The notes: generated from the sequence alone by a model not told the origin. 64,000 nt of DNA from an uncultured delta proteobacterium (GCA_963790365.1 CAWBOU010000016.1:141783-205782); one strand, 5' to 3'; positions 17,254-47,418 are shown, numbered from the stretch's first letter. Numbers and translations: made by a program.

Positions 17254-17372
17254 GGCGGGGGCAAAGCGTACGCGAATAGCGGATACGCCCCCCAGCCGCA
17301 ATTCGGCCTCCCCGCACTTTCTCGTCGACTTTCGGAAAGCCTCGGGGCTAGAGGACGCTTCGTTCCAGGCAG

Positions 17373-27685: not shown

Positions 27686-30241
27686 ATGAATCGATGGTTC
27701 CGAATTTTCGCGACTATCCTGTGGATCGGGGTCGCCACGGCGTCCTGCAGCAAGCGGATCGAGGGGCCGAACGTGGTGCTGATCACGCTCGATACGACCC
27801 GCGCCGACCGCCTGGGCACGATGGGTTACAAACAAGCGCAGACTCCGGTGCTCGACGCGCTCGCCACGCGCGGCGCCGTCTTCGAGCGTGCGTACAGCTC
27901 CGCACCGATCACGCTGCCGTCGCACACGACGATGCTGACGGGGCTCGAGCCCAATCGGCACCGCGTCCACAACAACGGCGCGTTCGTCGCTCCGCCCTCG
28001 CTCGAGACGTTGCCGGAGCGACTGAAGGAGCGCGGATATCGTACGGGCGCGTTCGTGAGCGCGTTCGTGATCGATCGGGCGTTCGGCCTCGATCAAGGCT
28101 TCGACGTCTACGACTCCGATACTCCTCAGGATTATCAGCCGCCGATCGTGATGATCCCCAAGCGCAACGGCAGCGACACGACCGACAATGCACTCACGTG
28201 GGTGAAGGGCGTCGGCGACGCTCCGTATTTTCTGTGGGTCCACTATTACGACGTCCATATTCCGCGGTACGCGCCTGCCCCCTTCAACAAGATCCCCGAT
28301 CGCTACGATGGCGCGCTCGCGTACGTCGATTCTCAGATCGGGCGCCTGTTGGCCGACGTCGAGAAGACGGCGAACGGACGCGAGACGCTGATCATCGTCA
28401 CCGCCGACCACGGGGAGAGCCTCGGCGCGCACGGGGAGCTCACTCACGGCGGATTGGTCTACGACTCGTCGCTCCACGTGCCGATGATCGTGGCCGGACG
28501 CGGGTTTCCCGCGGGGACGCGGTCCCGCAACTTCGCGAGGACTTCCGACGTCACGCCGACGGTGCTCGCCGCCGTCGGGGCGCCGCTCCCGACGGACCTG
28601 GACGGCCGCCCGCTGCAGAATCGGCTGGCCAAGGAGGACGAAGCGGAAACCGCGTACTTCGAGACGATGCTTCCGTCGAGCGATTTCGGTTGGGCGCGCC
28701 TTGCCGGCATTCGCACGCCGCGCTGGAAGCTGACCGGAGAGCCGCTTCCCGTCGAGCTCTTCGACGTGATGGCCGATCCCGAGGAGGCCGCGGATCGTGC
28801 GACGCAAGCGCCGGACGAGGTCGCGCGGTTGACCAAGGCGTTCGAAGCGATACGCGCCGCGCCGCTCACGGAGCGTTCGGAGATGCCCGCGGAAGTCGAA
28901 GAGAAGCTCGCGGCTCTCGGCTACGTCGCCCAGGCGCAGCGCTTCGAGCCCGGCAAGGAGCCCGATCCGCGAACGGCGATCGGCGCGATCACCCTCGTGC
29001 AGATGTCCCGAACGCTCTTGTCCGAGGGCAAGGTCGGCGAATCGATCGAAATGCTGGAGCTCTTCGGCCAGAGCCCGATCGCCGCGCCGATCGCTTGGCG
29101 GATGCTCGGTCCGCTGTACGTGCGCGCGGGCCGGTACGACGACGCGGTCGAGACCTACAAACAGCTCGCGGCGTCGACGAACAACATCCAGATCGAGATC
29201 CAGATGGCCGGCGCTCTCCTGATGGCCGAGCGTGCGACGGAAGCGCTCGAGTTGCTCGACGAGATCGAGAAGGCTTCTCCGGCGCGCGCTTCCCTGCTCC
29301 AGCTCCTGCGCGGTCGCGCGCTGCTCGCGGTGAACAAGCCGGAAGAAGCGATCAAGGTCGCCGCGCCTGTGCTCGAAGAGGATCCTTGGAACGACGCCAT
29401 GCTGGAGGTCGAGAGCGCCGCGCGCGCGAAGCAGGACGAGGTCGCGGAGATCGGGCGCCTCCAGCAACTCATCCGGAAGGCACCCAAGACAACGAAGCTC
29501 GTCGAGACTCGCGGTTGGCTCGCGCGTCTTTTGCACCGCCGGGGGCGTGATCGTGAAGCGAGAGAGCTCATCGATGCGGTAGCCAATCCTCCGCTCGAGC
29601 AGCAAGCGTTGCTCGCCGACATCGCGGCCGCGCACGGCGATGTCGAACGAGCCGTGAAGATCTACGAGAAGCTCGTCGCCTTGCTACCCGAGGGTGTCGA
29701 CTTCGCGCGGAGCCTCGCACGGCTCTACGTCGGGGTCGGTCGACACGACGACGCGCTGAAAACTTACGAGAGAGTGATCGCCGCGAATCCCAAGGACCCG
29801 TCGTCCTACGTCGATCGCGGCGCCCAGCTCTTCCGCCTGAAGCGCGTCGCCGAAGCGGAGCAGGACTATCGCAAGGCTCTCGCGCTCGACGAGCGGCAGC
29901 CCGAGGCCTCGTTCAACCTCTCGTTGTTGCTGCTGCGCAAGGGCGCCGACGGCGAAAAGGAGGCGGAGAAGTGGCTGCTGAAGGCGGTGGAGCAGCGGCC
30001 CGAATACGCCAAGGCGCACTACCACCTCGCGCGGCTTTACAATGCGCGCAAGGATCCGCGCGCGGCGACCCACGCAGAGAAGGCGGCCGCCGCATCGAGC
30101 GCAGCTCGAACGGCCGCGGCCGGAGCAGCGAGCCGTGGTCTCGGACGAGCTGGCTCCGCGGCGACCAAAGTCGAGAAAGTCGAGGGGCAGGTCGGCTCCG
30201 TTGAGGGGCAGACTGGCTCGCCCGCAACGAAAACGCGCTGA
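27686..30241 (+). CDS. Sulfatase-like hydrolase/transferase-TPR fusion; lipoprotein (paralogue S3)
   Basis: This is the in-frame part of track 27425..30241. ATG 27686 lies 34 nt after the S2 stop (MNRWFRIFATILWIGVATASC). It has 'NVVLITLDTTRADRLG', 'PITLPSHTTMLTGLEPNRHRVHNN', 'FLWVHYYDVHIPRY', 'VTADHGESLGAHGE' and 'LAALGYV', then a long TPR region and an Ala/Ser/Gly-rich tail. Confidence 0.85.
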   Translation: MNRWFRIFATILWIGVATASCSKRIEGPNVVLITLDTTRADRLGTMGYKQAQTPVLDALATRGAVFERAYSSAPITLPSHTTMLTGLEPNRHRVHNNGAFVAPPSLETLPERLKERGYRTGAFVSAFVIDRAFGLDQGFDVYDSDTPQDYQPPIVMIPKRNGSDTTDNALTWVKGVGDAPYFLWVHYYDVHIPRYAPAPFNKIPDRYDGALAYVDSQIGRLLADVEKTANGRETLIIVTADHGESLGAHGELTHGGLVYDSSLHVPMIVAGRGFPAGTRSRNFARTSDVTPTVLAAVGAPLPTDLDGRPLQNRLAKEDEAETAYFETMLPSSDFGWARLAGIRTPRWKLTGEPLPVELFDVMADPEEAADRATQAPDEVARLTKAFEAIRAAPLTERSEMPAEVEEKLAALGYVAQAQRFEPGKEPDPRTAIGAITLVQMSRTLLSEGKVGESIEMLELFGQSPIAAPIAWRMLGPLYVRAGRYDDAVETYKQLAASTNNIQIEIQMAGALLMAERATEALELLDEIEKASPARASLLQLLRGRALLAVNKPEEAIKVAAPVLEEDPWNDAMLEVESAARAKQDEVAEIGRLQQLIRKAPKTTKLVETRGWLARLLHRRGRDREARELIDAVANPPLEQQALLADIAAAHGDVERAVKIYEKLVALLPEGVDFARSLARLYVGVGRHDDALKTYERVIAANPKDPSSYVDRGAQLFRLKRVAEAEQDYRKALALDERQPEASFNLSLLLLRKGADGEKEAEKWLLKAVEQRPEYAKAHYHLARLYNARKDPRAATHAEKAAAASSAARTAAAGAASRGLGRAGSAATKVEKVEGQVGSVEGQTGSPATKTR

Positions 30242-32440: not shown

Positions 32441-32483
32441 GCGGGTCGGTCGCGCTCAGGCACGACCGGCCCGCGCCGTTTTT
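32441..32483 (+). terminator. Candidate intrinsic terminator after the triplet array
   Basis: The stem gcgggtcggtcg (32441-32452) pairs with cgaccggcccgc (32463-32474). That is 12 bp including one G-U pair, with a 10-nt loop. After a gccg spacer comes TTTTT (32479-32483), a rare run in this GC-rich DNA. Confidence 0.5.
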
Positions 32484-32490
32484 GGGAAGC

Positions 32491-33048
32491 ATGAAGAAAC
32501 TCGTTTTCACCACGCGAATCGCGTTCGCCTGCACGATGCTGCTCGGCTGGATCGTGGCGGGCTGCTCCAAGGAGTCGCCTTCCGCCGCTCTACCATCGGT
32601 CGACGCGGGTGAGGTTGCCGCTGCGGTTTCCGCGGATGGCGAGGTGACTCTCGCCGCCAACCAGGTGACGCGCCAAGCGGCACTCAAGGAGCTCGCGCGC
32701 GCCGCCAAGTTCGAGCTCGTCGTCAAGCCGATCGACAAGACCGAACAGACGACCCTGCGGCTCGAAGGTGTTTCCCTGGACGATGCGGTCGAGAAGCTCG
32801 CTGGAGGAGATCCCTACTTCTTGTCCTACAAGTTCGACTCGGCGACCTCGCGGCACGTGCTGCAAACGGTGGCCGTCGGCGAGCACCAGGACGCGCGCTC
32901 GATCCATCTCAAACGGCGCCGCGAGCGGCGCGCGAAGATCGACCTCAGGAAGAAAGAGCTCCTGAAGCAGAAGCAAGAGCGCGAGGCGACAGGGGAGGCA
33001 CCGCCGTCTCCGTCAGCGGCCGAAACCCCGACCGCTCCGCTGAGCTAG
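32491..33048 (+). CDS. Lipoprotein with an STN-like domain and a Lys/Arg/Glu-rich tail
   Basis: Track ORF 32482..33048. I prefer ATG 32491 (MKKLVFTTRIAFACTMLLGWIVAGC). 'VTLAANQVTRQAALKELARAAKFELVV...TLRLEGVSLDDAVEKLAG' resembles a secretin/TonB short N-terminal (STN) domain. It is followed by 'KRRRERRAKIDLRKKELLKQKQERE'. It is a paralogue of 36057..36791. Confidence 0.55.
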   Translation: MKKLVFTTRIAFACTMLLGWIVAGCSKESPSAALPSVDAGEVAAAVSADGEVTLAANQVTRQAALKELARAAKFELVVKPIDKTEQTTLRLEGVSLDDAVEKLAGGDPYFLSYKFDSATSRHVLQTVAVGEHQDARSIHLKRRRERRAKIDLRKKELLKQKQEREATGEAPPSPSAAETPTAPLS

Positions 33049-33929
33049 GGTGACGCCCAGGGAAGCGGCGCAAGGGCGATGCTGTAGGTGAGAATCGCGA
33101 GGAACGCGCCGAGGTAGAGAAGCCAGGTGCCGGACGGGCGCGCCTCACACTGCGCCATTCCCATGGCGGCGAGAACCCAGCCGAAGAGCGGAACCTGCGC
33201 GACCACGTAGGTGGTGAACAGAAAGCCCGCGAGGATCAGGTCGCGCCACTTGGACAAGCCGCGATTCCGCGGCCAGAGGAACGCGGCGGCGACGAGCGCC
33301 TCGATCGCCTGGGTCCACCACGTCATCAGCTGTCCGGCCCAGTAGGCGCGCGAGGTGCCGTGCAGCACGATGCTCGCGGGCGCGGTGTCGTAGCGGTGGA
33401 GCAGCTCCTCGACGGCGAGATAGTTCTCGCGGAGGAGGTTCGAATCCATTCCGGCGAGCCAACTCGCGGAGAGACGGAAGCGCGGCTCGCCCTGCAGCAT
33501 CAGGAAGTGGAAGAAGCTGCCGTCGAGGTAGTCGGGGGTGATCGCCTTCTGAACGACGGACAAGAGAAAGACGAGGCCGATCAGCAGGCGGGCGCTCCAG
33601 GCGATCACCTCTTCCGGGCGGGTGGCCAACAGCGCCAAGCCGATGCAGAGCGTCCAGTAGTTGATCAGGTACTTGTGGTTGTCGACGATCCACCAGCTTT
33701 CGAAGATCGACCAGGCGAGCGCCGCGGAGATCACGAACCAGAGGGCGGCGGCGCGGCGTAGCGGGGCGTAGAGCAGAGCCGCCACCGGCAGCAAGATCGT
33801 CGTGTAGCCGATCGAGTGATCCTGCGTGAGCAGCACGCACGTGGCCGCCAGCGAGAGCTCGACCGGATCGGGGCGGTCGCGCGTCAAACGCTCGCGCAGG
33901 CGACGGAACCAGGCACGCATCGAAGCCAT
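33045..33929 (-). CDS. Truncated HTTM-like polytopic membrane protein (SdpB-like?), module A
   Basis: Track ORF. It has about 8 helices. 'WWIVDNHKYLINYW' aligns with 'SEYLNHAYLYCW' of the full-length HTTM protein at 17373. It is a close paralogue of 43089..43943. Confidence 0.6.
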   Translation of the reverse strand: MASMRAWFRRLRERLTRDRPDPVELSLAATCVLLTQDHSIGYTTILLPVAALLYAPLRRAAALWFVISAALAWSIFESWWIVDNHKYLINYWTLCIGLALLATRPEEVIAWSARLLIGLVFLLSVVQKAITPDYLDGSFFHFLMLQGEPRFRLSASWLAGMDSNLLRENYLAVEELLHRYDTAPASIVLHGTSRAYWAGQLMTWWTQAIEALVAAAFLWPRNRGLSKWRDLILAGFLFTTYVVAQVPLFGWVLAAMGMAQCEARPSGTWLLYLGAFLAILTYSIALAPLPWASP

Positions 33930-33936
33930 GGGTCTC

Positions 33937-35502
33937 TCAGGGGAAAGTCGCGCGCACGCGCTCGGGCATTTTCCACGTGCGGTCGAAGTCCGGCCGATTC
34001 GGCACGAACACCGCGCTCAGATCGTCTTCGAACACCATGCGCCAGTCGGAACGTCGGCGCATCAGTCGATATTGCGGCAGGCGTCGCTCCACGAGCACGA
34101 GCTCGGTCGGATATTCGTCCAGCAACCGCTCCCACCCCGGCTTGCCGAAGAGAAAGGCCCAGTTGTCGCTCGCGGAGGTCTCGTCATAGAGCTCGGCGCG
34201 ACTGTCGAAGGAAACGCGGCACGCGGGGTACAGCTTCCAGATGATGAACGCGCCCCAGACGTAGGGCGTGGCGATGTTCCCGGAAAGCTCGTTCAATCGG
34301 ATGAACTCGGCGGCACCGTACGGGAAAGAACGGACCTTGCGAACGTGGTGCTCGAACGTCCAGACTTTCCAACGTTGCGGCTGCGCGACCTCGCGAGCCG
34401 CGACGAGGAAAATCGCCGTGCCGGCGATCGCGGCCAACGCACGACGGGCTCCCATGGAGAGACCCCTCGGCGGCGCGAGGAGCCCGGAGAACCGCGCCGC
34501 GAGCGGCTGAAGCGCGCGAGTGATGGCGCCGGGGAGGAACGCCGCGACCGCGATCCCGAAGAACGGGATGTGCCGGATCTGAAGACAAGCCGCGAGCAAC
34601 GTGACTGCGATGACCCCGGATCGAGCAGCGTCCCGCCTGAGCTCCGTAGCGAGCACCGCAGCAGCCGTTGCGATCGCCAACGCGACCATCGTGACGAACG
34701 GCTTCTGCGGCAAGGTGAAGAGCGAGCCCCACTCGATGATGTTTTCGCGGGGCGTCCCCGCGGCGCGGAGCGCGAACCGCCAGTAGTCGAGCCCCCAAGG
34801 GGTCAGCAACGTCGCGAGCGTGGCAGCCAAGGCGAACCCGACGAGCGGGATCATGCGTTCACGAGCGACGGGCTCGGCCGCCCGGGCGAACACCGCCGCA
34901 GCGAGGCGCCCGAGCGTGTAGACCCACAGGATTCCAACGCCGGCTGTGACGCCGCCGTGGAAGTTCGCCCAGACGAGCATCAAAGGCACCAGCCACGCGA
35001 GACGCTTCGAGCCACGGGCGCCTGCCGACGCGAGCACCCAGAGCTCGACCGCGAACAGAAAGAACGTGATCCCCTGCGGACGGAAGAACGAGTAGGCGGG
35101 TGCGGTCGGCGTCGCGACGGAGAGCAGCACGGCGCAAGCCACCCACCATGCGGCACCCTGGGCCCGTGCGGCCGCGTAGACCGCGATGCACGTGCCGAGC
35201 CAGAGACCGGCCCTGACGACGAGCAAGCCGGTGCCTCCGAGCTCGCGCGCGATGAGGTAGGTGCAGACGTCGCTCAGCCAGTGGTACACCCACGGCTCGA
35301 TCGTCGGCATGTAAGAGAAGGGGTCGATCTTGGTGACCTCTCCCGATTCGACGATGAGCCGGCCGTACGCCATGTAGCCCCACGTGTCGACCAACACGAC
35401 GGGCGCCGGCTGGAACGTCAGAAGCGTCGCTGCAACCGCCGCCCCGATGCAGACCACGAGCGCGACGCCGGGCAAGTCCCTACCCAAGCCGGACATCGAC
35501 AT
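33937..35502 (-). CDS. Large polytopic membrane protein with a C-terminal soluble domain (GT-C-like architecture; function unassigned)
   Basis: Track ORF. It has about 12 helices ('LVWANFHGGVTAG') followed by ~150 aa of soluble sequence ('FPYGAAEFIRLNELSGNIATPYVWGAFIIWKLYPACRVSFDSR'). The architecture resembles GT-C enzymes. I recognise no diagnostic motif. Confidence 0.45.
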   Translation of the reverse strand: MSMSGLGRDLPGVALVVCIGAAVAATLLTFQPAPVVLVDTWGYMAYGRLIVESGEVTKIDPFSYMPTIEPWVYHWLSDVCTYLIARELGGTGLLVVRAGLWLGTCIAVYAAARAQGAAWWVACAVLLSVATPTAPAYSFFRPQGITFFLFAVELWVLASAGARGSKRLAWLVPLMLVWANFHGGVTAGVGILWVYTLGRLAAAVFARAAEPVARERMIPLVGFALAATLATLLTPWGLDYWRFALRAAGTPRENIIEWGSLFTLPQKPFVTMVALAIATAAAVLATELRRDAARSGVIAVTLLAACLQIRHIPFFGIAVAAFLPGAITRALQPLAARFSGLLAPPRGLSMGARRALAAIAGTAIFLVAAREVAQPQRWKVWTFEHHVRKVRSFPYGAAEFIRLNELSGNIATPYVWGAFIIWKLYPACRVSFDSRAELYDETSASDNWAFLFGKPGWERLLDEYPTELVLVERRLPQYRLMRRRSDWRMVFEDDLSAVFVPNRPDFDRTWKMPERVRATFP

Positions 35503-35505
35503 GCC

Positions 35506-35952
35506 TCAACGCTCGACGACCGCCTCGCGCACCTTCACGGGCGTGAGCCTATGGTCGCGAGAGTCGAAGACGACGCGCCAAACTTCCACTCGCAGGTAGC
35601 GTGCGCGCACTGCGCCGCCCTCTTTCGCCACCGACTGGTTGAAATCGGCGGCGAGCTCGTTTGCGAGCGAAGACAAACGCTCGGGCGTAGGAATCGAGCG
35701 GACTTCCCAGGTGAGACGCTCGAACCGCGCGGGAATCCGGAGCGGTGTTTCGCGGCCATCTTCTCCTACGAGATAGCAACGCACGATGCGCCGACGGGGG
35801 TTATCCACCGTCGAGAACATGCCAAACCCGCCACCCTTCCAAGGCGTGAGATCGTGAACACGAACTTGGTAGGCCTGGGCGGCGGCGATGAGGAGGAGGA
35901 TCGCGGGTGCCGTCCAGCGCAAGACGCGGTCGCGAACGTCCACCGTGCTCAT
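35506..35952 (-). CDS. Small single-TM protein with a W-x-GGGFGMFSTVD motif (SdpA-like?), module A
   Basis: Track ORF 35506..36024. I start it at ATG 35952 (MSTVDVRDRVLRWTAPAILLLIAAAQAY). It is a paralogue of 42628..43092. Shared motifs are 'W(K/R)GGGFGMFSTVD', 'IPTPERL/ILPTPDRL' and 'VEVWR..FD'. Confidence 0.6.
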   Translation of the reverse strand: MSTVDVRDRVLRWTAPAILLLIAAAQAYQVRVHDLTPWKGGGFGMFSTVDNPRRRIVRCYLVGEDGRETPLRIPARFERLTWEVRSIPTPERLSSLANELAADFNQSVAKEGGAVRARYLRVEVWRVVFDSRDHRLTPVKVREAVVER

Positions 35953-36056: not shown

Positions 36057-36791
36057 ATGCTACAGCGGTCGGTGTCGATGGGCCGCCGGCTTCTTTTCCT
36101 CAGTCTCGTCGTCTTGCAGGCGGCGACGCTCACTTGGCCGGGCGCTGCTCGAGGCGCGTTGATCGACTACGAGGACGGCCGGCTCTCGGCTGATGCGCAA
36201 GGCGTACAGGCGGAAAGCTTGTTCGCCGCGCTCGAAAAGCAGGCCGGCGTGCGGGTCGAAGCCTCGAAGCAGATCCGCGAGAAGTCGGTGACGGTGAGCT
36301 TTCGCGCGCTCCCGGTGGAAGACGGGATGCGCCAGATCGTCCGGAGCTTGGGGATTCCGGGGTACGCCGTGCTCTACGATCCGAAAGCAGCTCGGCAGAC
36401 GTACGTCTTGATGGAGTCGACCGCGGCGGCGCCGAGCCTCGCGAAGCCATCCGTCGCGCCCCCGGCCCCGGTTGCCGCGGCTGATCCGAATTCCTCACCG
36501 ACCCCGCGGCAGCTCGACAAAGAGGAGCTCCTGGAGCTCGCCAAGCAGCGACGCGAGGCGCGCCTCCGCTCGGACCCGGAGCGTCAACAGAAGCTCGAGG
36601 CGAAGCGATTGGAGAAAGAGGATCGCAAGCGCGCCAACGAGGAGCGGAAGCAAGAGCGGGCCGAGCAGAAGCGCGAGCGCGACGGACAGAAGGGGATCGA
36701 GCGAGAAGCGCGCCGCGCGGCGCGTGAAGCCGTGGGCGCGAATCCGGTCGACGGCGCCGGCAAGGAAACGGTCGAGCGCGCTCGGCAGTGA
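36057..36791 (+). CDS. Secreted STN-like protein with a long Lys/Arg/Glu-rich tail
   Basis: Track ORF. It has a signal peptide. 'SADAQGVQAESLFAALEKQAGVRVEA...VTVSFRALPVEDGMRQIVRSLG' is STN-like. It then has a Pro/Ala linker and 'QRREARLRSDPERQQKLEAKRLEKEDRKRANEERKQERAEQKRERD'. Its stop overlaps the start of the next gene (GTGA). Confidence 0.55.
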   Translation: MLQRSVSMGRRLLFLSLVVLQAATLTWPGAARGALIDYEDGRLSADAQGVQAESLFAALEKQAGVRVEASKQIREKSVTVSFRALPVEDGMRQIVRSLGIPGYAVLYDPKAARQTYVLMESTAAAPSLAKPSVAPPAPVAAADPNSSPTPRQLDKEELLELAKQRREARLRSDPERQQKLEAKRLEKEDRKRANEERKQERAEQKRERDGQKGIEREARRAAREAVGANPVDGAGKETVERARQ

Positions 36792-39700
36792 TCCTGCGGC
36801 TCATGCGGTTGCGCCAGGCAGCCGTCTTCGGCGCGCTCTGCCTCCTGCTGCTCCAGCCGTGCCGAGCCGGCGCGACGACGCCGGGCGAGGCCGCCGATCT
36901 CCGTGACGTCGGCGTGGCCGAGCTCGAGAACGAGCGTCCGATCGACGCCGAGAAGGCCTTTCGTCGGCTGATCGAGATCGCCGCCGGGGATCCGCTCGGG
37001 CACGCGAACCTGGCGATCGCGTTGCTTCGCCAACAGAAGCACGCCGAGGCGCTCAGCGCAGTCGGCCGAGCTCTCGAGCGCGCACCCGGCCGGCCCGATC
37101 TCTTGTCGATCGAAGGAGAGATCCTCGCCGCCGACGGGCAGCTGGACGAAGCGCTCCGCGTGCTCGCCGACGCCGCACGTGGTGCTCCGGACGATCCCGA
37201 AACGCAGTTCGCGTTGGCCCGCCACGCTGCCACGGTCGATGGCGACCAAGCGAAGGCGTTGGCCGGCGAAGCCCTCGAGCGTCTCGCCGACCTGCGCCCG
37301 GAAAACTTGGTGGTGAACCTGCAACGCGCGCGCTCGGCAGTTGGCGCGGGCGACCGTGCGACGGCGTCGTCCGCCTACCTCCGGATCAAGGAGCTCTCGT
37401 GGAACGCGCCGCCGGCCGCGGCTCAGCTTCTGGAGCGGATCCTCGGCGCGCTCGCCGACGGCAAGCTCGAGCAGGCACGGACGCCATCTCTCCAGCTCGA
37501 GAACGTCCTCAAAGTCACGAACGCGTATCAACGGAGCCTGCAAGAGCTCTACATCGGAATCCAGGGACGTCCGATCCTCCGGTTCGCGAGCGAGCCGCCG
37601 GCGGAATCGTTCGGTGATCCGTTGCCGGTCGCGTTCCGCGCGTCACGTCTCGACTCCGGCGAAACGCTCGCCGCGGGCCTCGTGGCCGCCGACTTCGACG
37701 GTGACGGTCGCGGCGACGTGGCGCGGATCCGCGGCGGATCGCCGCGCATTCTCGAGGTGCGACTCGCGTCCTCGCAATGGAAGGTCGATCACCGTTTCCC
37801 GGTGGACGGTGCCGCGCAATTGCTCGTGGCGGATCTCGACAACGACGGCGCGCTCGATCTCGGCACTTTCGGTGCGAACGAGGCGAGCGTTTTTCGTGGC
37901 AACGGCCGTGGCGCGTTCGAGGCGGTCGCCGGTGCCTTCGGCCTCGGTGGCGGCGCAGCCGCGGTCGCGGCCGATTTCGATGCCGACGGCGATCTCGACG
38001 TCGCGGTCGCCGGTGGCAAGGCCAAGCCGCTCGAGCTCCACCGCAACGCGGGCCCCGGCCGCTTCGAGGCGATTGGAGCGGCGCCTTTTCCGAAGCTCGG
38101 TGCGGAGCTCCCACGTGCGATGCGAGCGGCGGACGTCGACCGCGATGGGGACCTCGACCTCGTGATCGCGAGCGGCAAGCGTCTCGTGTGGCTGTCGAAT
38201 CAGCGACAGGGGCGTTTCGAAGACCGCGGCGAGGAGGCCGGCCTCGCGAGCGCATCGGGAGTGGAGTCGGTCGTGAGCGCAGACCTCGACAACGACGGCC
38301 GCCCCGATCTCCTGACGGCGGGCCGGCAGGTCGCGATCTGGCGGAACGCCGGCGGCGGGCGTTTCGAGGGCCAGCAGGCGGCGGTCTCCTCCAAGAAGGG
38401 CAAGTATTCGTCGCCTATCGCTTTCGACGCCGACAACGACGGCCGGCTCGAAGTCGCGGCGATCCTCGAACGCCGACTGGTCCTCGTCGGGCAGCGCCCG
38501 AGCCTCGTGTTCGAAGCGATCTCGATCGAAGGCTCGCCCGGCGCGCTGTCGATCGTCGCCGCGGCGGACCTCGATGCCGACGGCGACGTCGATCTCGTGG
38601 CCGGTGGTCCTTCGGGCCTCTACCGCCTCGACAACGAGGGCGGTAATCGCAACCACTGGTTGAGCGTCCGACTGCGAGGCCTGAAGGAAGGAAACGGCAA
38701 GAACAACCTCTTCGGCTTCGGCGCGACGATCGAGGTGCGAAGCGGCTCCGCGCTGCAGTATCGCGAAGTCGTCGGACCAGTCACGCACCTCGGCCTCGGC
38801 AAGAGAAAGTCCGCCGATGTGCTGCGCGTCGTCTGGACGAACGGCGTGCCGCAGAACCGACTGCGAGTGGGCGGCGACCAGTCGATCGTCGAAGAGCAAG
38901 TGCTCAAGGGAAGCTGTCCGATGCTGTTCGCGTGGAACGGCCAGCGCTACGAGTTCGTCACCGATCTCCTGTGGAACGCGCCGCTCGGATTGCCGGTGGG
39001 ACTCGACGTTTGGGCAGGAGCCGAGCCCGAAGAGCTCGTCGAAGTTCGCGGCGCGGTTCCCGACCGCGGAGTCTACCGTCTTGCCGTGACCGAGGAGCTT
39101 TGGGAGGCGGCCTACTTCGACCGCGCACGTCTCTGGGTCGTCGACGCGCCGCCGGACGTCGCGGTAGCGAGCAACTTGCGCGTCGTGCCGGGGCGGAAGC
39201 TCGGCACCCGCTTGCTCGGCAGTCGCGGCGTGCGGCCCGTCGCGGCTGCTTGGGACGGAGCGGGGCGCGAAGCCACCGAGCAGGTCGCCCGTCGCGACGA
39301 AGTCTACGCGGACGGCTTCGAGGAAGGACCGTACCAGGGAGTGTCCGCCCGTCCGTGGAGCTTCACGTTCGACCTCGGCGAGGCGCCCGCCGCACCGATT
39401 CGACTGCTTCTCGAAGGCTGGATCTTCCCGTCGGACGCGAGCCTGAACATCGCCATGGCACAGCGCGCCGATCTCGAGCGGCCGTCGCCGCGCCTCGAGG
39501 TCGAGACGCCGAACGGCTGGCGCACGCTCGTCGCGGATCTCGGGCATCCGGCGGGCAAGACGAAGACCATGGTCGTCGACACGCCGCCGCTACCGGCCGG
39601 ATCGCATCGATTGCGGATCGTGTCCGCTCTGTGGCTCTCGTGGGACCAGATTGCGTGGACGAGGGACATCGCCGACGATGCGTTGCTCGTCCGCGCGAAG

Positions 39701-40162
39701 CTCGACCCGTCCGCCGCGAACCTTCGCTACCGCGGTTTTTCGCGCGTGCGACGCCAGGCGCCGAACGCGCCCCATGTCTTCGACTACGAGCACGTTCGGC
39801 GCGATTCACCATGGCTGCCGTTTCGCGGTCCCTACACGAGGTACGGAGATGTGCGTCCCTTGCTCGATGCCGCCGATGATCGAGTGGTGATCTTCGGGCC
39901 CGGGGACGAGCTCGCGATCGGATTCGACGCCGCGACGTTGCCGCGGCCGCCGGCGGGCTGGATCCGATCCGTGTTCCTCGAGAGCACGGGATGGGACAAG
40001 GACGCCGACCGAAACACCTACGAGGCGTCTGGCGTCGAGCCGCTGCCTTTCCACGAGATGAGCGGCTACCCCTACGCGCCGGGCGAGACATACCCGGACG
40101 ACGCGTTCCACCGAGACTATCGCCGCGAGTGGCTCATCCGGGAGGCTCCGGGAGCGGAGTGA
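36788..40162 (+). CDS. TPR + FG-GAP/VCBS repeats + ASPIC/UnbV (CRTAC1-type) protein with a ~430-aa C-terminal extension
   Basis: Track ORF of 1124 aa. It has a signal peptide and N-terminal TPR-like helices. It has repeated D-x-D-x-D-G loops (DFDGDGRGD, DLDNDGALD, DFDADGDLD, DVDRDGDLD, DLDNDGRPD, DLDADGDVD). The ASPIC part reads 'NHWLSVRLRG..GFGATIEVRSG...THLGLGKRKSADVLRVVWTNG'. Confidence 0.8.
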   Translation: MILRLMRLRQAAVFGALCLLLLQPCRAGATTPGEAADLRDVGVAELENERPIDAEKAFRRLIEIAAGDPLGHANLAIALLRQQKHAEALSAVGRALERAPGRPDLLSIEGEILAADGQLDEALRVLADAARGAPDDPETQFALARHAATVDGDQAKALAGEALERLADLRPENLVVNLQRARSAVGAGDRATASSAYLRIKELSWNAPPAAAQLLERILGALADGKLEQARTPSLQLENVLKVTNAYQRSLQELYIGIQGRPILRFASEPPAESFGDPLPVAFRASRLDSGETLAAGLVAADFDGDGRGDVARIRGGSPRILEVRLASSQWKVDHRFPVDGAAQLLVADLDNDGALDLGTFGANEASVFRGNGRGAFEAVAGAFGLGGGAAAVAADFDADGDLDVAVAGGKAKPLELHRNAGPGRFEAIGAAPFPKLGAELPRAMRAADVDRDGDLDLVIASGKRLVWLSNQRQGRFEDRGEEAGLASASGVESVVSADLDNDGRPDLLTAGRQVAIWRNAGGGRFEGQQAAVSSKKGKYSSPIAFDADNDGRLEVAAILERRLVLVGQRPSLVFEAISIEGSPGALSIVAAADLDADGDVDLVAGGPSGLYRLDNEGGNRNHWLSVRLRGLKEGNGKNNLFGFGATIEVRSGSALQYREVVGPVTHLGLGKRKSADVLRVVWTNGVPQNRLRVGGDQSIVEEQVLKGSCPMLFAWNGQRYEFVTDLLWNAPLGLPVGLDVWAGAEPEELVEVRGAVPDRGVYRLAVTEELWEAAYFDRARLWVVDAPPDVAVASNLRVVPGRKLGTRLLGSRGVRPVAAAWDGAGREATEQVARRDEVYADGFEEGPYQGVSARPWSFTFDLGEAPAAPIRLLLEGWIFPSDASLNIAMAQRADLERPSPRLEVETPNGWRTLVADLGHPAGKTKTMVVDTPPLPAGSHRLRIVSALWLSWDQIAWTRDIADDALLVRAKLDPSAANLRYRGFSRVRRQAPNAPHVFDYEHVRRDSPWLPFRGPYTRYGDVRPLLDAADDRVVIFGPGDELAIGFDAATLPRPPAGWIRSVFLESTGWDKDADRNTYEASGVEPLPFHEMSGYPYAPGETYPDDAFHRDYRREWLIREAPGAE

Positions 40163-42596
40163 CGCTCGCCGATCGCTCCTTCTTCGCGAGCGCGGCGGCC
40201 TTCGCTTCGTGGTCGGCGGCGCGGGAATCGCCGCGCTTCCGATAGATCTCGGAGAGGATGCGGTGCGCGCCCGCATGGTCGGGGCGAGCATCGACGACCT
40301 GGCGCGACCACTTCTCGGCTTCACGATCGTCGCCCTTCGCGAGCAACAATGACGAAAGGCGGAACGCAGCTTCGCTGCGACCCGCATCGATGGAGAGCGC
40401 TTTGCGGAAATCGGCCTCGGCGTCCGCCGCGCGTCGGAGCCGTGCCAAGACGGTGCCGCGTCCCACGTACGCGAATGCGTCGTTCGGATTCAGCTGGAGA
40501 ATCTTCTCGTAGAGCGGGAGCGCTTCTTCGTTTCTCCCGAGTCCGGAATAGACGCTCGCGAGCCTGCGCGCGTAGCCTACGGCACCTGGCAGATCGGCGA
40601 CCAGCTCTTCGTAAAGGGTAGCCGCTTTCTTCGCGTCGCCGTCGGCGAGAGTGATTTCGGCGAGAAGCGCTCGCTGTTGCGGGGGCTTGCCCGTCGCCGA
40701 TTCGAGGAGCGCGCGCGCTTCCTGGTTTCGCCCGTGGCGATGGAGCAGGGTCGCGAGCAAGCCACGAGCGTGTACGAGGCGCTGCGACTCCGGCGCCTTC
40801 TTCAGAGCGTCCTCGAGCTTGGCGATTGCGGCGCCTTCGTCTTGCGATGCACGCGCGTTCGAATCGAGCGTGAGCACCCCATCGTTCCACGGATCGTCGG
40901 CGAGGAGCTTCGTCGTCTCGCGGATCGCCTCCTCGGGCTTGTTCGCCGCGAGGAGCGCGCGGGCACGAATCAGGGCGAGGTTCGACGGCGGCTTCGTGCT
41001 CTCGCTCGCGACTTGGTCGAGCACCACGAGCGCCTCGCCGGCGCGGTCGGCCATGGTGAGCACCTCGGCGAGCTGAAGCCGCACGTTGACGTTCCCCGTG
41101 AGATCGGCCAGGTCGCGGTAGGTCTTGACGGCGTCCTCGTAGCGCTGCGTCCGGAAATAGATCGGGCCGAGGACCCCCAGGGCGACGGGCCGAATCACCT
41201 CGTTCGCGGTAAAGAGACGCAGCGCCTCGATGGCATCGGCGATGCGCCCCTGCCAGGCGATCGTCTCCGCGCGCTCGATCAACGTCACCGCCGAGACCAT
41301 GGCTCGCGGATCGGGTCTCTTGTCGGGCTCGAAGCGCTGCGCCTGGGCGACGTAGCCGAGCGCGGCGAGCTTCTGCGCGACGTCAGGATCGACCGCGCCT
41401 GCATCGGCGATCTCGGCCGGGCGGAGCTTCTCGTACGACTTGGTGAGCTCTTCTACGACCGCTGGCTGGTTGGCGGCGACGTCCTCGAGCTCGCCGGGAT
41501 CGGCGAGAGTGTCGTAGAGCTCCACCGGCTTCGGCTCGGCGGTCAGCTTCCATCGTTCCGTGCGCACGCCGCCGACGACCGACCAGCCGTACGCCTGTGC
41601 GGGAAAGTGCGTCTCGAAGTAGGCGACTTCCGCATCGGCTTTCTCCGCCAGACGCTGCTGGAGCGGGCGGCCGCTCGAATTCGCCGCCGGCGCAGCTCCC
41701 ACGGCGAGCAACACCGTCGGCGTCACGTCCGCCGTTTTGGCGAAGGCCTTGGAGCGCTCGTTGCCGCCGAACCCGGGCCCGGCGACGATCAGAGGAACCC
41801 GCAGCGTCGAGTCGTACGCCACGAGGCCGTGAGCCATTTCGTCGTGATCGCCGAGGCCCTCGCCGTGGTCCCCGACGGCGATGATCAGGGTCTCGCGGCC
41901 GCCGCTCGCCTGATCCGCGCCCGCCAGGAGGCGGCCGATCTCCGAGTCCACGTACGCGAGCGAGCCGTCGTACCGATTGCCGATGCGGTCGAAGGGAGGC
42001 GGTGCATGTCGGGGGAGATGGACGTCGTAGTAGTGCACCCACGCGAAATGAGGGCCGCTCGCGGATTGCCGGAGCCAGGCCAAGGCGCGATCCGTCGTCT
42101 GCTTCGCCTCGCGTCGCGCGTGCAAGAACGAAAGCTGCCCGTAGTCTCGGTCCGTTTCGTCGTCGTAGGTGTCGAAGCCTTGATCGAGGCCGAATTCGCG
42201 ATCGAGGACGACCGAGCTCACGAAGGCGCCGGTGCGATAGCCGCGAGCGTGGAGGAGCTCGGCGAGGGTCTCGAGTGAGGGCGGCGCGATGAAACCGCCG
42301 TTGTCGTGCACGCGGTGCTGGTTCGGATCGAGCCCGGTGAGCAGCGTGACGTGGGATGGCAACGTCATCGGTGCGCTCGCGAAAGCGCGCTCGAACGTCG
42401 CTCCGCGCGCGGCGAGAGCGTCGAGATTGGGGGTCGCCGCTTTGGCATGGCCGTAGGCGCCGATCCGGTCCGCGCGCGTGGTGTCGAGCGTGACGAGCAA
42501 CACGTTTGGGCTACTCGGGCGCTGGCAGGAGATGAACGAGAGCGCCCCGAGCAGGATGAGCGTCGCGACGATCCGTTTCCGATGGTTCTGCTTCAT
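40134..42596 (-). CDS. Sulfatase-like hydrolase/transferase-TPR fusion; lipoprotein (paralogue S4)
   Basis: Track ORF 40134..42680. I start it at ATG 42596 (MKQNHRKRIVATLILLGALSFISC). It has 'NVLLVTLDTTRADRIG', 'PMTLPSHVTLLTGLDPNQHRVHDN' (42333-42371), 'FAWVHYYDVHLPRH', 'AVGDHGEGLGDHDE' and 'LAALGYV', followed by TPR. It is closest to S3. Confidence 0.85.
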   Translation of the reverse strand: MKQNHRKRIVATLILLGALSFISCQRPSSPNVLLVTLDTTRADRIGAYGHAKAATPNLDALAARGATFERAFASAPMTLPSHVTLLTGLDPNQHRVHDNGGFIAPPSLETLAELLHARGYRTGAFVSSVVLDREFGLDQGFDTYDDETDRDYGQLSFLHARREAKQTTDRALAWLRQSASGPHFAWVHYYDVHLPRHAPPPFDRIGNRYDGSLAYVDSEIGRLLAGADQASGGRETLIIAVGDHGEGLGDHDEMAHGLVAYDSTLRVPLIVAGPGFGGNERSKAFAKTADVTPTVLLAVGAAPAANSSGRPLQQRLAEKADAEVAYFETHFPAQAYGWSVVGGVRTERWKLTAEPKPVELYDTLADPGELEDVAANQPAVVEELTKSYEKLRPAEIADAGAVDPDVAQKLAALGYVAQAQRFEPDKRPDPRAMVSAVTLIERAETIAWQGRIADAIEALRLFTANEVIRPVALGVLGPIYFRTQRYEDAVKTYRDLADLTGNVNVRLQLAEVLTMADRAGEALVVLDQVASESTKPPSNLALIRARALLAANKPEEAIRETTKLLADDPWNDGVLTLDSNARASQDEGAAIAKLEDALKKAPESQRLVHARGLLATLLHRHGRNQEARALLESATGKPPQQRALLAEITLADGDAKKAATLYEELVADLPGAVGYARRLASVYSGLGRNEEALPLYEKILQLNPNDAFAYVGRGTVLARLRRAADAEADFRKALSIDAGRSEAAFRLSSLLLAKGDDREAEKWSRQVVDARPDHAGAHRILSEIYRKRGDSRAADHEAKAAALAKKERSASVTPLPEPPG

Positions 42597-42627
42597 CACT
42601 TCTCTCGCAATGACGGTTCCGTGTGCT

Positions 42628-43092
42628 ATGAGCGCCGCTTCACCTCGCCGAATGACTCGCTGGTGGCAACGGTCCTGCATCTACGTCGCTCCTGCGGTCC
42701 TGGTCGGCGTTGCGGCGACCCAGGTCTATCACGTCCGCGCGAACGGGTTGACCGTGTGGCGAGGCGGTGGCTTCGGCATGTTCTCGACGGTCGACGGCCC
42801 GAGCCAGAGGCTGCTCCGGGCGTACCTCCTCGTGCAGGGCAAAGAGGTCGCGCTGACCGTCCCTCGTGACCTCGCGCGTGCGAACGCCGTGGCGAGGATC
42901 TTGCCGACGCCGGATCGTCTTCGTGCGCTCGGAGCGGAGCTGCTCGCGGTCGTGCGAAGCTCGCTCCCAGACGCGCGACAACCCCCCCAGAAGCTCGCCG
43001 TGCGCGTCGAGGTCTGGCGCCTGGCGTTCGACCCATCGACGTCGCGGCTGGAGCCGACCAAGTTTCGCGAAGCGGTCGTCGTGGAAGAATGA
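42628..43092 (+). CDS. Small single-TM protein with a W-x-GGGFGMFSTVD motif (SdpA-like?), module B
   Basis: This is the in-frame part of track 42478..43092. The candidate start is ATG 42628, with 42652 (MTRWWQR) as an alternative. It is a paralogue of 35506..35952. Its stop overlaps the next start by 4 nt. Confidence 0.6.
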   Translation: MSAASPRRMTRWWQRSCIYVAPAVLVGVAATQVYHVRANGLTVWRGGGFGMFSTVDGPSQRLLRAYLLVQGKEVALTVPRDLARANAVARILPTPDRLRALGAELLAVVRSSLPDARQPPQKLAVRVEVWRLAFDPSTSRLEPTKFREAVVVEE

Positions 43093-43943
43093 AGCTCGTC
43101 GCCAGACTCTTCGAAGATCGCGACCGGCTCGATCTCTCGCTGACCGCGACTTGTCTCCTCCTTGCGGTCGACCGTTACACACGACCGATTCCGATTCTCC
43201 TCGCCCTCCTCGCCCTCTTCTTCCGCTCGCTGCAACGGAGCGCGGGCTTCTGGCTGATCCTGGCCGCTGCGATCGGCGTCGGTACGTTCGACGGTTGGCC
43301 GCACCTCGACAACCACAAGTACCTCATCAACTACTGGCCGCTGGCGATCGGCTGTTGCCTGTTCGCGGCCGAACCCGAGCGCGCGATCGCCGCCAACGCC
43401 CGGCTCCTGATCGGCCTCGTTTTCCTGCTGGCCGTGGTCCAGAAGCTCGCCTCGCCAGATTTCCTCGACGGCAGCTACTTTCATTTTCAGCTGCTGAAGG
43501 ATCCTTACTTCGCGCCGCTTGCGCGCTGGGGAGGGACCAGCGCCACGCTGCTCGACGCAAATCTGCGCGGTATCGCCGGTCTGCACGATTACTCGACGCC
43601 CCCGAGCTCGCTCGTCTTGATCGCCGGCCCGAGGGTTCCCGCGATCGCCCAGGCGATGACGTGGTGGACGCTGTTGATCGAGGTCGCCGTGGCCGTCGGG
43701 TTTCTCGTTCGGCGCCCCGCCTGGATCGCGCGAGCTCGGGATCCCATCCTCTTGCTCTTCCTGTTCACGACCTACCTCTTCGCTCACGTCGCTGCCTTCG
43801 GCTGGATCCTCGTGGCGATGGGTCTGGCACAAACGGAGCCGCGCGCACGGCTCGTGCGCGGCCTCTACGTGCTCGCGTTCCTCGCCGTCCTCGCGTACGC
43901 GCTTCCGCACGTCGCTTACAACTGGGAAGCGCAGGCGGATTGA
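43089..43943 (+). CDS. Truncated HTTM-like polytopic membrane protein (SdpB-like?), module B
   Basis: Track ORF. It has 'WPHLDNHKYLINYWPLAIG', 'ARLLIGLVFLLAVVQK..PD(F/Y)LDGS(Y/F)FHF' and 'MTWWT..IE..VA..FL'. These are shared almost verbatim with 33045..33929. Confidence 0.6.
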   Translation: MKLVARLFEDRDRLDLSLTATCLLLAVDRYTRPIPILLALLALFFRSLQRSAGFWLILAAAIGVGTFDGWPHLDNHKYLINYWPLAIGCCLFAAEPERAIAANARLLIGLVFLLAVVQKLASPDFLDGSYFHFQLLKDPYFAPLARWGGTSATLLDANLRGIAGLHDYSTPPSSLVLIAGPRVPAIAQAMTWWTLLIEVAVAVGFLVRRPAWIARARDPILLLFLFTTYLFAHVAAFGWILVAMGLAQTEPRARLVRGLYVLAFLAVLAYALPHVAYNWEAQAD

Positions 43944-45660: not shown

Positions 45661-47418
45661 TCAGCGATCCGCCGGCGGCTGACCGGTCCCGGAAACGAGC
45701 GTGGAATAACGGCTCGGCTTCACGTCCCGCCATTCTTCGACCGTGCCGTCCGGCCAGGCGACGCGAACAGCGTCGAACGTGGGCCGGTCGCCCAGCCCGA
45801 TCAATACCCGCGGATCGTTTGCCGATTGATAGCTGCCGTCGGCCCGTGAGCGACGCAGCAGCGACGGAAGTTCGCGACGAACCACCGTCACCTTGGCCCC
45901 CGGCATGTCTCGCTTTTCGCGCTTCCCCACCAATCGCAACCCCAGCCAGTGCTTCTTCGCTCCGACTTCGTTCACCATCAACCGCGCCGGGCCGTCGTCG
46001 TTCGTGACGAGGATGTCGGTGTCGCCGTCGTTGTCGACGTCACCGAACGAGGCGCCACGGCCCACGGCGGCTACGGCCAATGCCGCGCCGGCTTTCGCGG
46101 ACACGTCCTCGAACGTACCGTCACCCTTGTTGCGCAGCAGTTGGTTCTTCTGTTGGTACGGGAACGGATCGCCGGCGCGGACGAATGCGTCCTGCGCGCG
46201 AACGGCGCCGTTGGCCGTGAAGATGTCGAGCCATCCGTCGTTGTCGTAGTCGAAAAACGCCGTGCCGAAACCCGTGAACGGGAGGGTCGGACCGGCGAGA
46301 CCCGCTTCGACGGTCCGATCCTCGAACAGCCCGTCCCCGAGGTTCTGATAGAAGGTGTGGTACTCCGACTCGAGGTTCGTCACCCACAAGTCTTCGTCCC
46401 CGTCGTTGTCGGCATCACCGACGTCGACGCCCATGCCGGAATGCGGCTTCCCGTTACGGTCGACCGCGCATCCGCTGAGCACGGCGGTGTTCTCGAAGGT
46501 TCCGTCGCCCTTGTTGCGCCATAGGAAATTCGGCTTCTCGTCGTTCGCGACCCAGAGATCGAGCCAGCCGTCCTGGTCGGCGTCGAGCGCGATCACGCCG
46601 AGACCGGGCCCTCGCTCGGCGAAGATCCCGGCGCGCTGCGTGACGTCTTCGAAGGTCCCGTCGCCCCGGTTGTGAAACAGCAGGTCCGGTTGGTCGCGAA
46701 ACGACATCGGACCGCAGTACTCCTTGTTGCCGCCCGTCGAGCTGCAGCGCTTGTGCGTCGCGACGGTGAAGTCCGTGTATGTCGCGACGTAGAGGTCCAA
46801 CCAGCCGTCGCGATCGTAGTCGAAGAACGTCGAGCTCGTGTTCCAGAACGCGCTCGAGATCCCAGCTGTTTTGGTCGTCTCGCGGAACTTACCGTCGCCG
46901 TCGTTGTGCCAGAGCTCGAGCGCTCCGAGCTGGCTCACGAGCAGATCGATCCGTCCGTCGTTGTCGTAATCGCCGATCGCGACACCCTGTCCATAAGCAC
47001 GGGTGCGGATCCCGCTCGCCTCGGTGACGTCGGTGAATCGCAGCCCGCTCCCCGCGGAATCGTTGCGATAGAGCCGTGAGAGGGCCGGAGTCGATCCATC
47101 TGCGGCCTTACCGGGCTGATCGGCTCTGCCCGATTGGACGAAGAACACGTCGAGATCGCCGTCGTCGTCGTAATCGAAAAACGTTCCGCCCGCCCCTTGG
47201 ACCTCCGGGAAGTAGAACTGCCCGGTACGGCCCGCATCATGCACGAAATTCAACCCGACTTCGGCCGCCCGATCGACGAAGAGGTCGCCTGCGCCAGCAG
47301 GCACAGCGGTCGTCGCGCTCGTTCCCGTCTCCTGCTTGCGACAGCCGCTCAGGAGCACGAGAACGGCGAGAGTGGTGGCGATCCCCGCTCGTCGCCGGAG
47401 TACAGCGTGCATGCGCAA
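45661..47418 (-). CDS. CRTAC1-type FG-GAP/ASPIC lipoprotein
   Basis: Track ORF. It has the lipobox 'LLSGC' and the loops 'DYDDDGDLD', 'DYDNDGRIDL', 'DYDRDGWLDL', 'DADQDGWLDL', 'DADNDGDEDL', 'DYDNDGWLDI' and 'DVDNDGDTDI'. The ASPIC tail reads 'KHWLGLRLVG...LIGLGDRPTFDAVRVAWPDG'. Confidence 0.85.
   Translation of the reverse strand: MRMHAVLRRRAGIATTLAVLVLLSGCRKQETGTSATTAVPAGAGDLFVDRAAEVGLNFVHDAGRTGQFYFPEVQGAGGTFFDYDDDGDLDVFFVQSGRADQPGKAADGSTPALSRLYRNDSAGSGLRFTDVTEASGIRTRAYGQGVAIGDYDNDGRIDLLVSQLGALELWHNDGDGKFRETTKTAGISSAFWNTSSTFFDYDRDGWLDLYVATYTDFTVATHKRCSSTGGNKEYCGPMSFRDQPDLLFHNRGDGTFEDVTQRAGIFAERGPGLGVIALDADQDGWLDLWVANDEKPNFLWRNKGDGTFENTAVLSGCAVDRNGKPHSGMGVDVGDADNDGDEDLWVTNLESEYHTFYQNLGDGLFEDRTVEAGLAGPTLPFTGFGTAFFDYDNDGWLDIFTANGAVRAQDAFVRAGDPFPYQQKNQLLRNKGDGTFEDVSAKAGAALAVAAVGRGASFGDVDNDGDTDILVTNDDGPARLMVNEVGAKKHWLGLRLVGKREKRDMPGAKVTVVRRELPSLLRRSRADGSYQSANDPRVLIGLGDRPTFDAVRVAWPDGTVEEWRDVKPSRYSTLVSGTGQPPADR

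Follow-up and report, generated by a model that had tools for sequence, protein, structure and literature searches.

Within a 64,000-nucleotide (nt) stretch of DNA from an uncultured delta proteobacterium (GCA_963790365.1 CAWBOU010000016.1:141783-205782; GC content ~67%), hereafter the window, a gene for a small protein with a single transmembrane helix occurs twice beside a gene for a larger polytopic membrane protein (modules A and B, Table 1). In module A the small gene, a gene for a 521-amino-acid (aa) polytopic protein and the large gene follow one another at distances of 3 and 7 nt, as re-derived from the DNA, and in module B the small and large genes overlap by 4 nt (ATGA). The two modules are intact paralogues: identity amounts to 46% between the small subunits (E 2e-38) and 48% between the large ones (E 1e-66), far more than chance would give, and both copies contain the strings W(K/R)GGGFGMFSTVD, DNHKYLINYW, RLLIGLVFLL.VVQK and MTWWT. 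A duplicated module of this kind, with these gaps and this overlap, had been described in an earlier sequence-only reading of the window, and its open reading frames, coordinates and shared strings have all been verified. Our analysis leads us to re-annotate the modules as two putative paralogous split HTTM-like enzymes and not as an Sdp-type toxin maturation system.

The pair is not peculiar to the window. The small protein has 471 detectable homologues, with no Pfam domain among the 120 listed, and a HMMER scan with a profile of the large family returns 1,639 clusters at 50% identity (E<=1e-3), 854 of which reach E<=1e-30. The best 150 large-family representatives are all 250-340 aa long, and among them there is no fusion of small and large protein and no other fused domain. 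Scanning 185,579 species genomes for the small-protein motif gave at least 210 positive genomes, belonging to Planctomycetota, Acidobacteriota, Myxococcota, Bacteroidota/Rhodothermales, Gemmatimonadota, Verrucomicrobiota, Spirochaetia, Actinomycetota, Dadabacteria, Binatia and others, and including Deinococcus megaplasmids; Proteobacteria are nearly absent. Of 84 fetched loci, which represent at least 10 phyla, 82 have the large gene immediately after the small gene on the same strand, the two exceptions being contig ends, and in none of the other loci of this set does a gene lie between them. Because of this adjacency and the lack of inserts elsewhere, we conclude that the two genes form an obligate module, which is widespread and unannotated. 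Two copies of it are also present in several genomes besides this one (for example L047/L080 and L075/L077). Almost all of the pair-bearing taxa belong to menaquinone-type phyla, a spread that, on this chemotaxonomic background, fits a dependence on naphthoquinol. In Deinococcus both genes are annotated in RefSeq as 'hypothetical protein'; one divergent pair, on plasmid p_TS293_3 of Deinococcus taeanensis, has the loop variant WRGGGFGMYATVN and adjoins an M3 metallopeptidase gene and insertion sequence elements.

The four window proteins have no Pfam or NCBIfam match at E<=1. The sequence-only reading had likened them to the SdpA/SdpB pair of Bacillus subtilis, in which a small gene likewise precedes a polytopic HTTM-superfamily gene and SdpA and SdpB are needed together for maturing a secreted protein. 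The modules would then be SdpA/SdpB-type maturation or export pairs that turn three tandem secreted paralogues encoded close to module A, the triplet, into an antimicrobial peptide. The order of the genes, their tight coupling, the HTTM-like partner and the synteny of triplet and module A in close relatives all agree with such an arrangement, and the general architecture of a small single-helix partner with an HTTM-like core stands; the identification with SdpA and SdpB does not. Neither the two small proteins of the window nor 50 members of their family match SdpA (TIGR04034 or Pfam SdpA) at E<=1, and the same 50 members have no match to DUF5819 or to the VKGC lumenal domain (PF22777). SdpB (TIGR04033, cut-off 178.4 bits) is absent among the 25 of 37 NCBIfam families listed for 149 large-family members. 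The SdpB model itself performs as it should, since the canonical HTTM protein of the window reaches it at E 5.6e-6. The profile comparison with SdpA/SdpB and HTTM had been named beforehand as refuting if negative; no significant match was found, and membership of the SdpA and SdpB families is therefore refuted on that reading's own terms.

The genomic surroundings agree. SdpA is reported not to be an integral single-pass protein, and Sdp is a system of Bacillota, whereas the phyla that carry the pair are mostly Gram-negative and of menaquinone type. An Sdp locus holds an SdpC-like precursor and SdpRI immunity genes alongside SdpA/SdpB (PMC6818787); neither module is flanked by SdpR/SdpI-type immunity genes or, as had been noticed from the sequence, by an SdpC-like gene, including one with a hydrophobic C-terminal toxin segment. 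The triplet, formerly the obvious candidate for cargo, encodes proteins that end in a conserved GLVDTDL and have no family match. It has no relative in the 185,579 species genomes, is found neither at the other pair loci nor around module B, and outside the window occurs only in close relatives (L146). Because it has no relative in the species-genome collection it is not a general partner of the pair, and its lineage restriction and absence at other pair loci rule it out as conserved cargo. An Sdp-type function for the modules thus appears very improbable.

What the large subunit does resemble, remotely, is the HTTM/VKGC proteins, of which the window encodes a canonical full-length member (Pfam HTTM E 5e-71, VKGC_lumenal_dom E 8e-44) at the position where the sequence-only reading had placed one. 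BLASTP aligns large A with this protein at E 1e-4, setting NHKYL on NHAYL and VVQK on GIAK, and a hidden Markov model (HMM) of the large family, run against 57 canonical bacterial HTTM proteins, matches 53 of them, always in one region (best E 6.7e-6). The hhalign alignment of the large family with HTTM is colinear over ~200 columns at low mact. Its score of 28.2 exceeds that of every one of 120 block-shuffled decoys (mean ~18.5, maximum 26.1), and when the 149 representatives are used it is 23.0, the best of 40 decoys reaching 21.0. The AlphaFold2 (AF2) model of large A is all-helical (pLDDT 88.1, pTM 0.84); a Foldseek search of the PDB with this model gives GGCX (9l24_A), below significance, the highest TM-score and probability of the list (TMq 0.44, probability 0.57; E 1.3, root-mean-square deviation 13 A), most other matches having TM-scores of ~0.1-0.25. 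The recurrent Pfam matches among the 149 members, all sub-threshold, are to MauE, DoxX_3 and LMF1, which we take to belong to the same clan as HTTM. Each of these items is weak, and together they are consistent; we propose that the large protein is a distant HTTM/VKGC-type catalytic subunit.

The catalytic residues of GGCX provide a more specific comparison. In that enzyme the substrate Glu binds to Asn159, His160 and Tyr395; Lys218, the general base, is braced by Trp223 and adjacent to Asp263; Phe286 lies beneath the naphthoquinone and Met401 above it, and Phe299 stacks on CO2 (PMC12647623). The pocket is covered by a three-helix cap and by lumenal loop LL9 (PMC12647623; 2025 structure paper). 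We mapped residues from human GGCX to the window HTTM protein by phmmer and from there to the large family by hhalign, and counted them in the 149 large-family representatives. On this mapping, which rests on a weak alignment, the counterparts of Asn159 and His160 are Asn84 and His85 (149/149 each), that of Lys218 is Lys128 (145/149), that of Asp263 is Glu210 (145/149), and those of Phe286 and Phe299 are Phe236 (149/149) and Phe249 (145/149, with Tyr in the other 4). Trp223 corresponds, with one extra residue, to position 134, Phe or Tyr in the family and Tyr in large A, which is aromatic in 149/149. The large family has only three invariant residues, Asn84, His85 and Phe236, and all three are on the GGCX-mapped list; every mapped catalytic position is kept in large A and in large B. 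Three short helices are predicted to follow Lys128 in the AF2 model, like the GGCX cap. The positive-inside rule would put the N-terminus, with the RR and RNR loops, in the cytoplasm and thereby the Asn-His pair and the Lys at the periplasmic face. We also observed that the Arg found in 145/149 family members at position 150 (module A numbering), part of a D-x-R-F motif in the cap-like region, is Tyr in large B, where it is residue 149.

The small subunit may supply what the large one lacks relative to GGCX. Its AF2 model (small A, pLDDT 88.9) has a transmembrane helix at residues 3-33, then a loop of low pLDDT and a beta-beta-alpha-alpha-beta-beta domain, and the W-x-GGGFGMFST signature of the loop is invariant in 84/84 small-family members. 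After the last transmembrane helix GGCX has, in LL9, the motif W390-x4-Y395-G-Y-S-W, and 57 bacterial HTTM proteins have W343-x-E-x-G-Y348-R-F-S-W. The small subunit has W38-x4-F43-G-M-F-S after its own helix, so that the spacing from Trp to Tyr or Phe is that of GGCX W390..Y395 and of W343..Y348 in the window HTTM protein. It was to this post-membrane motif (GYxFSWR) of the HTTM protein that the sequence-only reading had drawn attention as a loose likeness of the small protein. Helix and loop are paired colinearly with their HTTM counterparts by hhalign, at low confidence (P 0.1). We propose that the loop of small A is a counterpart of the lid loop LL9, for which low pLDDT in an isolated model is as expected of an interface. 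Given the succession of helix, LL9-like loop and domain, the small protein can be read as transmembrane helix TM9, LL9 and a reduced clamp, in which case it would be a separately encoded active-site lid whose gene lies upstream of that for the core. Homology of the small subunit to the VKGC lumenal domain as such was considered and rejected, as neither sequence nor fold gave significance, and the LL9-like pattern alone is kept as a lead.

Neighbouring genes in other genomes provide the strongest functional clue. Clustering of all genes within +/-6 kb of 82 pair loci revealed no universal third gene. At 9 of these loci, however, which belong to Acidobacteriota, Myxococcota (including Nannocystis punicea), Binatia and Saprospiraceae, there are secreted proteins with tandem Y.EEC..EGC..EEV.EL motifs, and in 5 of the 9 the motif gene is the immediate upstream neighbour of the small gene. 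The motif contains the Gla-domain core C-x4-C-x2-EE and ~8 invariant Glu per tandem unit. Ten motif proteins (six from the nine loci and four from the pattern scan described next) were compared with 24,736 Pfam models: the Gla domain is the best match for nine and the second for one, at E 2e-4 to 0.5, all sub-threshold. When the 185,579 genomes were scanned for the motif as a DNA pattern, 13 true loci were found, 11 of which have the pair within the 8-kb locus. Eight of the 13 are loci that had been used to derive the motif; among the five new ones, three have the pair (two Acidimicrobiales, one Kofleriaceae), and one lies at the edge of its stretch; none adjoins a canonical HTTM gene. These neighbours point to carboxylation of Glu-rich exported proteins. 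Eight of the Gla-like proteins, all encoded directly beside a pair, have two tandem units (Table 1). The longer ones end in a Cys-rich domain of ~250 aa with an HE(S/A)RH (HExRH) motif, which matches nothing in Pfam or NCBIfam and may be a metalloprotease, a Gla plus protease layout that recalls clotting factors.

The same neighbours bear on the main rival explanation, in which the pair is a DoxX/MauE-type, quinone-linked thiol/disulfide redox module that oxidises the Cys residues of exported proteins, the Cys-loop-rich neighbours at other loci being its disulfide substrates. The motif proteins are indeed rich in invariant Cys, but they also have the invariant Glu residues, and not Cys alone. 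Likewise, the only recurrent Pfam matches of the large family are to MauE (7/149, best E 0.0023) and DoxX_3 (3/149), and Foldseek lists the DoxX-like NACHO/TMEM35A at probability 0.47; yet the MauE and DoxX matches are far below threshold and partial in coverage. DoxX, MauE and LMF1 have these weak matches and a helical-bundle membrane fold in common with the large protein, and they are much smaller, four-helix units. The large protein has no invariant Cys; what it conserves corresponds to the carboxylation site of GGCX, with the Glu-binding Asn-His pair and the Phe residues of CO2 and quinone. On balance a thiol oxidase seems unlikely to us.

A second genomic context may also be informative. 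At ~12 loci (in Dadabacteria, Spirochaetia, Myxococcota and others) a gene for a LolA-like DUF2092 protein lies upstream of the pair on the same strand; at most of them it is followed by an uncharacterised ~250-aa gene, and four have a TonB-dependent receptor gene downstream. This neighbourhood, together with the extra polytopic protein inside module A and the fact that every statistical link to HTTM is sub-threshold, would suit a conserved membrane complex whose role lies outside quinone chemistry, for example in transport or envelope biogenesis, the likeness to HTTM being convergent or too remote to inform. Set against this are the coincidence of 7/7 GGCX membrane-domain catalytic residues with the most conserved columns of the family, an hhalign alignment that beats every decoy, and the return of the motif-first search to the pair, and we find such a function improbable, more so than a thiol oxidase.

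In our best explanation the pair is probably a two-subunit, periplasm-facing, quinol-dependent VKGC-like enzyme split in two genes. The sequence-only reading had offered a 'split HTTM enzyme' as its alternative, and the remote colinear HTTM similarity, the retained GGCX residues and the LL9-like loop argue in its favour. The module with its near-universal adjacency, the residue conservation and the link to Gla-motif proteins in other genomes are observed; homology to HTTM, complex formation, quinol chemistry and carboxylation are what we infer. The large protein (~290 aa) would be equivalent to the GGCX membrane core, including the three-helix cap; its Asn-His would bind the substrate carboxylate, its Lys, braced by the aromatic residue and with an acidic neighbour, would deprotonate the quinol, and one Phe would stack on the naphthoquinone and another on CO2. 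The small protein (~150 aa) would contribute the last transmembrane helix, the WKGGGFGMFST loop, standing in for LL9 above the pocket for quinone and substrate, and a small domain in the periplasm. The two would be co-translated, as the overlap of module B suggests, into one enzyme with its active site towards the periplasm, where menaquinol and O2 would generate a strong base and an exported substrate would be modified, probably by carboxylation. The 521-aa protein of module A would be a lineage-specific accessory. The narrower reading, that the family is a two-subunit, menaquinol-dependent bacterial gamma-glutamyl carboxylase of proteins, seems to us somewhat less likely than not, and we advance it tentatively.

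The correspondence with GGCX is close in some respects and loose in others. The order of the motifs is colinear, the Asn-His, Lys plus aromatic, acidic and two Phe residues fall at aligned positions, three short helices come after the Lys, a transmembrane helix is followed by a W-x4-[YF]..F-S loop, and in some genomes the secreted neighbours have the Gla-core-like motif. GGCX, however, is a single protein, whereas here there are two genes, the part equivalent to its C-terminus being encoded first. The loop between His and Lys is ~15 residues shorter in the large family. Phe stands where GGCX has Tyr395, and Phe or Tyr, with the extra residue, where it has Trp223. GGCX has two large clamp domains, whereas the pair has a periplasmic domain of ~100 aa and no evident propeptide-binding clamp. 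The pair also falls below every HTTM and lumenal-domain threshold.

A split arrangement has a precedent in DUF5819, a protein with one transmembrane helix and a domain, which AlphaFold 3 predicts to rebuild GGCX with its HTTM partner, placing loop residues at the quinone pocket; in this partner Lys189 and Trp195 have a K+6 spacing (bioRxiv 10.64898/2026.08.19.745780). There too, a single-helix protein with an extracytoplasmic domain is encoded beside a membrane core, and the six residues from Lys to aromatic compare with Lys128 and Phe/Tyr134. In contrast, 0/50 small-family members match DUF5819 and the GGGFGMFST loop is specific to the pair family, and the partner of DUF5819 has an HTTM domain and a DCC1-like C-terminal domain, neither of which is recognisable in the large subunit.

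Several results weigh against a VKGC-like enzyme, and against a carboxylase in particular. HTTM (PF05090) finds no match at E<=1 in the large proteins of the window, in 17 close homologues or in the 149 diverse representatives, and the HTTM, SdpB, VKGC-lumenal and DUF5819 models are unmatched at E<=1 by ~200 family members. The hhalign probability is 2-9% (P 0.004-0.027). Foldseek against the PDB returns no significant match for the large or the small model, GGCX is absent from the top 50 matches of the small one, and the large-family profile, when run against PDB sequences, missed GGCX and returned nothing relevant. Comparison of the small subunit with the VKGC lumenal domain by HMM and by hhalign gives P 0.1-0.4. 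Approximately 89% of pair loci, including those of the window and its close relatives, are without a Gla-like neighbour. The Leptospira VKGC orthologue is reported to lack carboxylase activity, and GGCX-type catalytic residues alone do not prove Glu carboxylation. Finally, the fused bacterial carboxylase MloH carboxylates an Asp that is not part of a protein (bioRxiv 10.64898/2026.08.19.745780).

The interest of the pair lies in the combination of a large family that is uniformly labelled 'hypothetical' and for which there is no curated model, an apparently full GGCX active-site set, and Gla-like neighbours in some genomes. A search of the available literature found no description of a bacterial Gla protein. 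Bacterial VKGC relatives have been known for ~20 years, and to our knowledge almost none has an assigned function. If the gamma-glutamyl carboxylase reading is correct, bacteria would have their first Gla proteins in the Gla-like neighbours from Acidobacteriota, Myxococcota, Binatia, Saprospiraceae and Acidimicrobiales, and the modules of the window would perform the same chemistry on exported substrates encoded elsewhere. The Gla-like proteins open the long-standing question of bacterial gamma-carboxylation to direct test, and they bear on how a minimal split carboxylase might recognise its substrate without large clamp domains.

Table 1. Coordinates of the modules, their motifs and other features. 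Plain numbers are positions in the window; entries beginning with L are loci of other genomes.
Feature	Location	Strand	Remarks
Module A small subunit, 148 aa	35506-35952	minus	open reading frame
Module A polytopic insert, 521 aa	33937-35502	minus	open reading frame between small A and large A
Module A large subunit, 294 aa	33045-33929	minus	open reading frame; predicted all-helical polytopic core
Module B small subunit, 154 aa	42628-43092	plus	open reading frame
Module B large subunit, 284 aa	43089-43943	plus	open reading frame
Small A loop WKGGGFGMFSTVD, residues 38-50	35803-35841	minus	coordinates re-derived from DNA
Small B loop WRGGGFGMFSTVD	42757-42795	plus	coordinates re-derived from DNA
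Large A DNHKYL motif	33666-33683	minus	holds Asn84, His85
Large A KAITPDYLDG motif	33519-33548	minus	holds Lys128, Tyr134
Large B DNHKYL motif	43308-43325	plus	coordinates re-derived from DNA
Large B VVQKLASPDFLDG	43434-43472	plus	coordinates re-derived from DNA
Large B Tyr149	43533-43535		Arg in 145/149 family members
Triplet, three tandem secreted paralogues, 209-213 aa	30406-32402	plus	two Cys; 81-86% mutual identity
Canonical HTTM + VKGC-lumenal protein	17373-18755	plus	
Type I phosphodiesterase-family gene	15163-17385	minus	
Sulfatase-TPR lipoprotein	27692-30241	plus	
Sulfatase-TPR lipoprotein	40134-42593	minus	
FG-GAP/UnbV_ASPIC gene	36788-40162	plus	
FG-GAP/UnbV_ASPIC gene	45661-47418	minus	
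Module A flanking gene	32482-33048	plus	signal peptide/lipoprotein
Module A flanking gene	36057-36791	plus	signal peptide/lipoprotein
Interval before small B	42594-42627		~34 nt
Two-unit Gla-like protein	L026:5317-5943		Nannocystis punicea FL3; beside pair
Two-unit Gla-like protein	L007:5470-5961		beside pair
Two-unit Gla-like protein	L012:5521-5955		beside pair
Two-unit Gla-like protein	L061:1993-2727		beside pair
Two-unit Gla-like protein	L065:5425-5955		beside pair
Two-unit Gla-like proteins	L154, L160, L171		
Longer Gla-like protein	L001:7178-8296		
Longer Gla-like protein	L037:5323-6357		
Longer Gla-like protein	L042:10326-11390		
Longer Gla-like protein	L069:9083-10595		
DUF2092 loci	L041, L048, L051, L052, L058 (4261-5914), L062, L063, L071, L075, L076, L079, L080		
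Divergent pair, Deinococcus taeanensis	L225:4412-5663		
Small to large with two tandem inserts	L146:1995-5043		
Distant 521-aa homologue and second gene	L223:1507-4478		

Searches by regular expression and by HMM, covering all frames of the window as well as its close relatives, found no Gla-like motif. Two of the latter (L146 and L147, 83-89% identical) keep the layout of module A, with one or two ~500-aa polytopic inserts, a convergent ~200-aa gene and the triplet genes; in L146 two tandem polytopic genes (495 and 517 aa), whose products are 50% and 63% identical to the 521-aa protein of the window, lie between small and large. The 521-aa protein, for which GT-C-like would be a guess from its motifs, has no Pfam, NCBIfam or PDB match and 20 homologues only, the distant ones not near pairs; in one locus (L223) a distant homologue is followed directly by a second ~500-aa gene. 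Its confinement to the window lineage rules it out as a general third subunit.

Paralogy in the window extends beyond the pair. Two sulfatase-TPR lipoproteins (53% identical) are encoded one per module, and an FG-GAP/UnbV_ASPIC gene lies by each module; neither family recurs at the pair loci of other genomes. Modules A and B and the canonical HTTM protein, which adjoins a type I phosphodiesterase-family gene, make at least three known or putative HTTM-superfamily systems within these 64 kb. On either side of module A lies a signal-peptide or lipoprotein gene with a long Lys/Arg/Glu-rich tail; the two are not detectably related to each other (E 0.29), and one has a weak TolA-like match (E 2e-4). 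The gene ending at 33048 is convergent with large A and overlaps its end by 4 nt. Upstream of module B, the divergent sulfatase-TPR gene has its likely start (MKQNHRKR...) only ~34 nt away from that of small B. Two divergent promoters would have very little space there, so either start may be mis-assigned.

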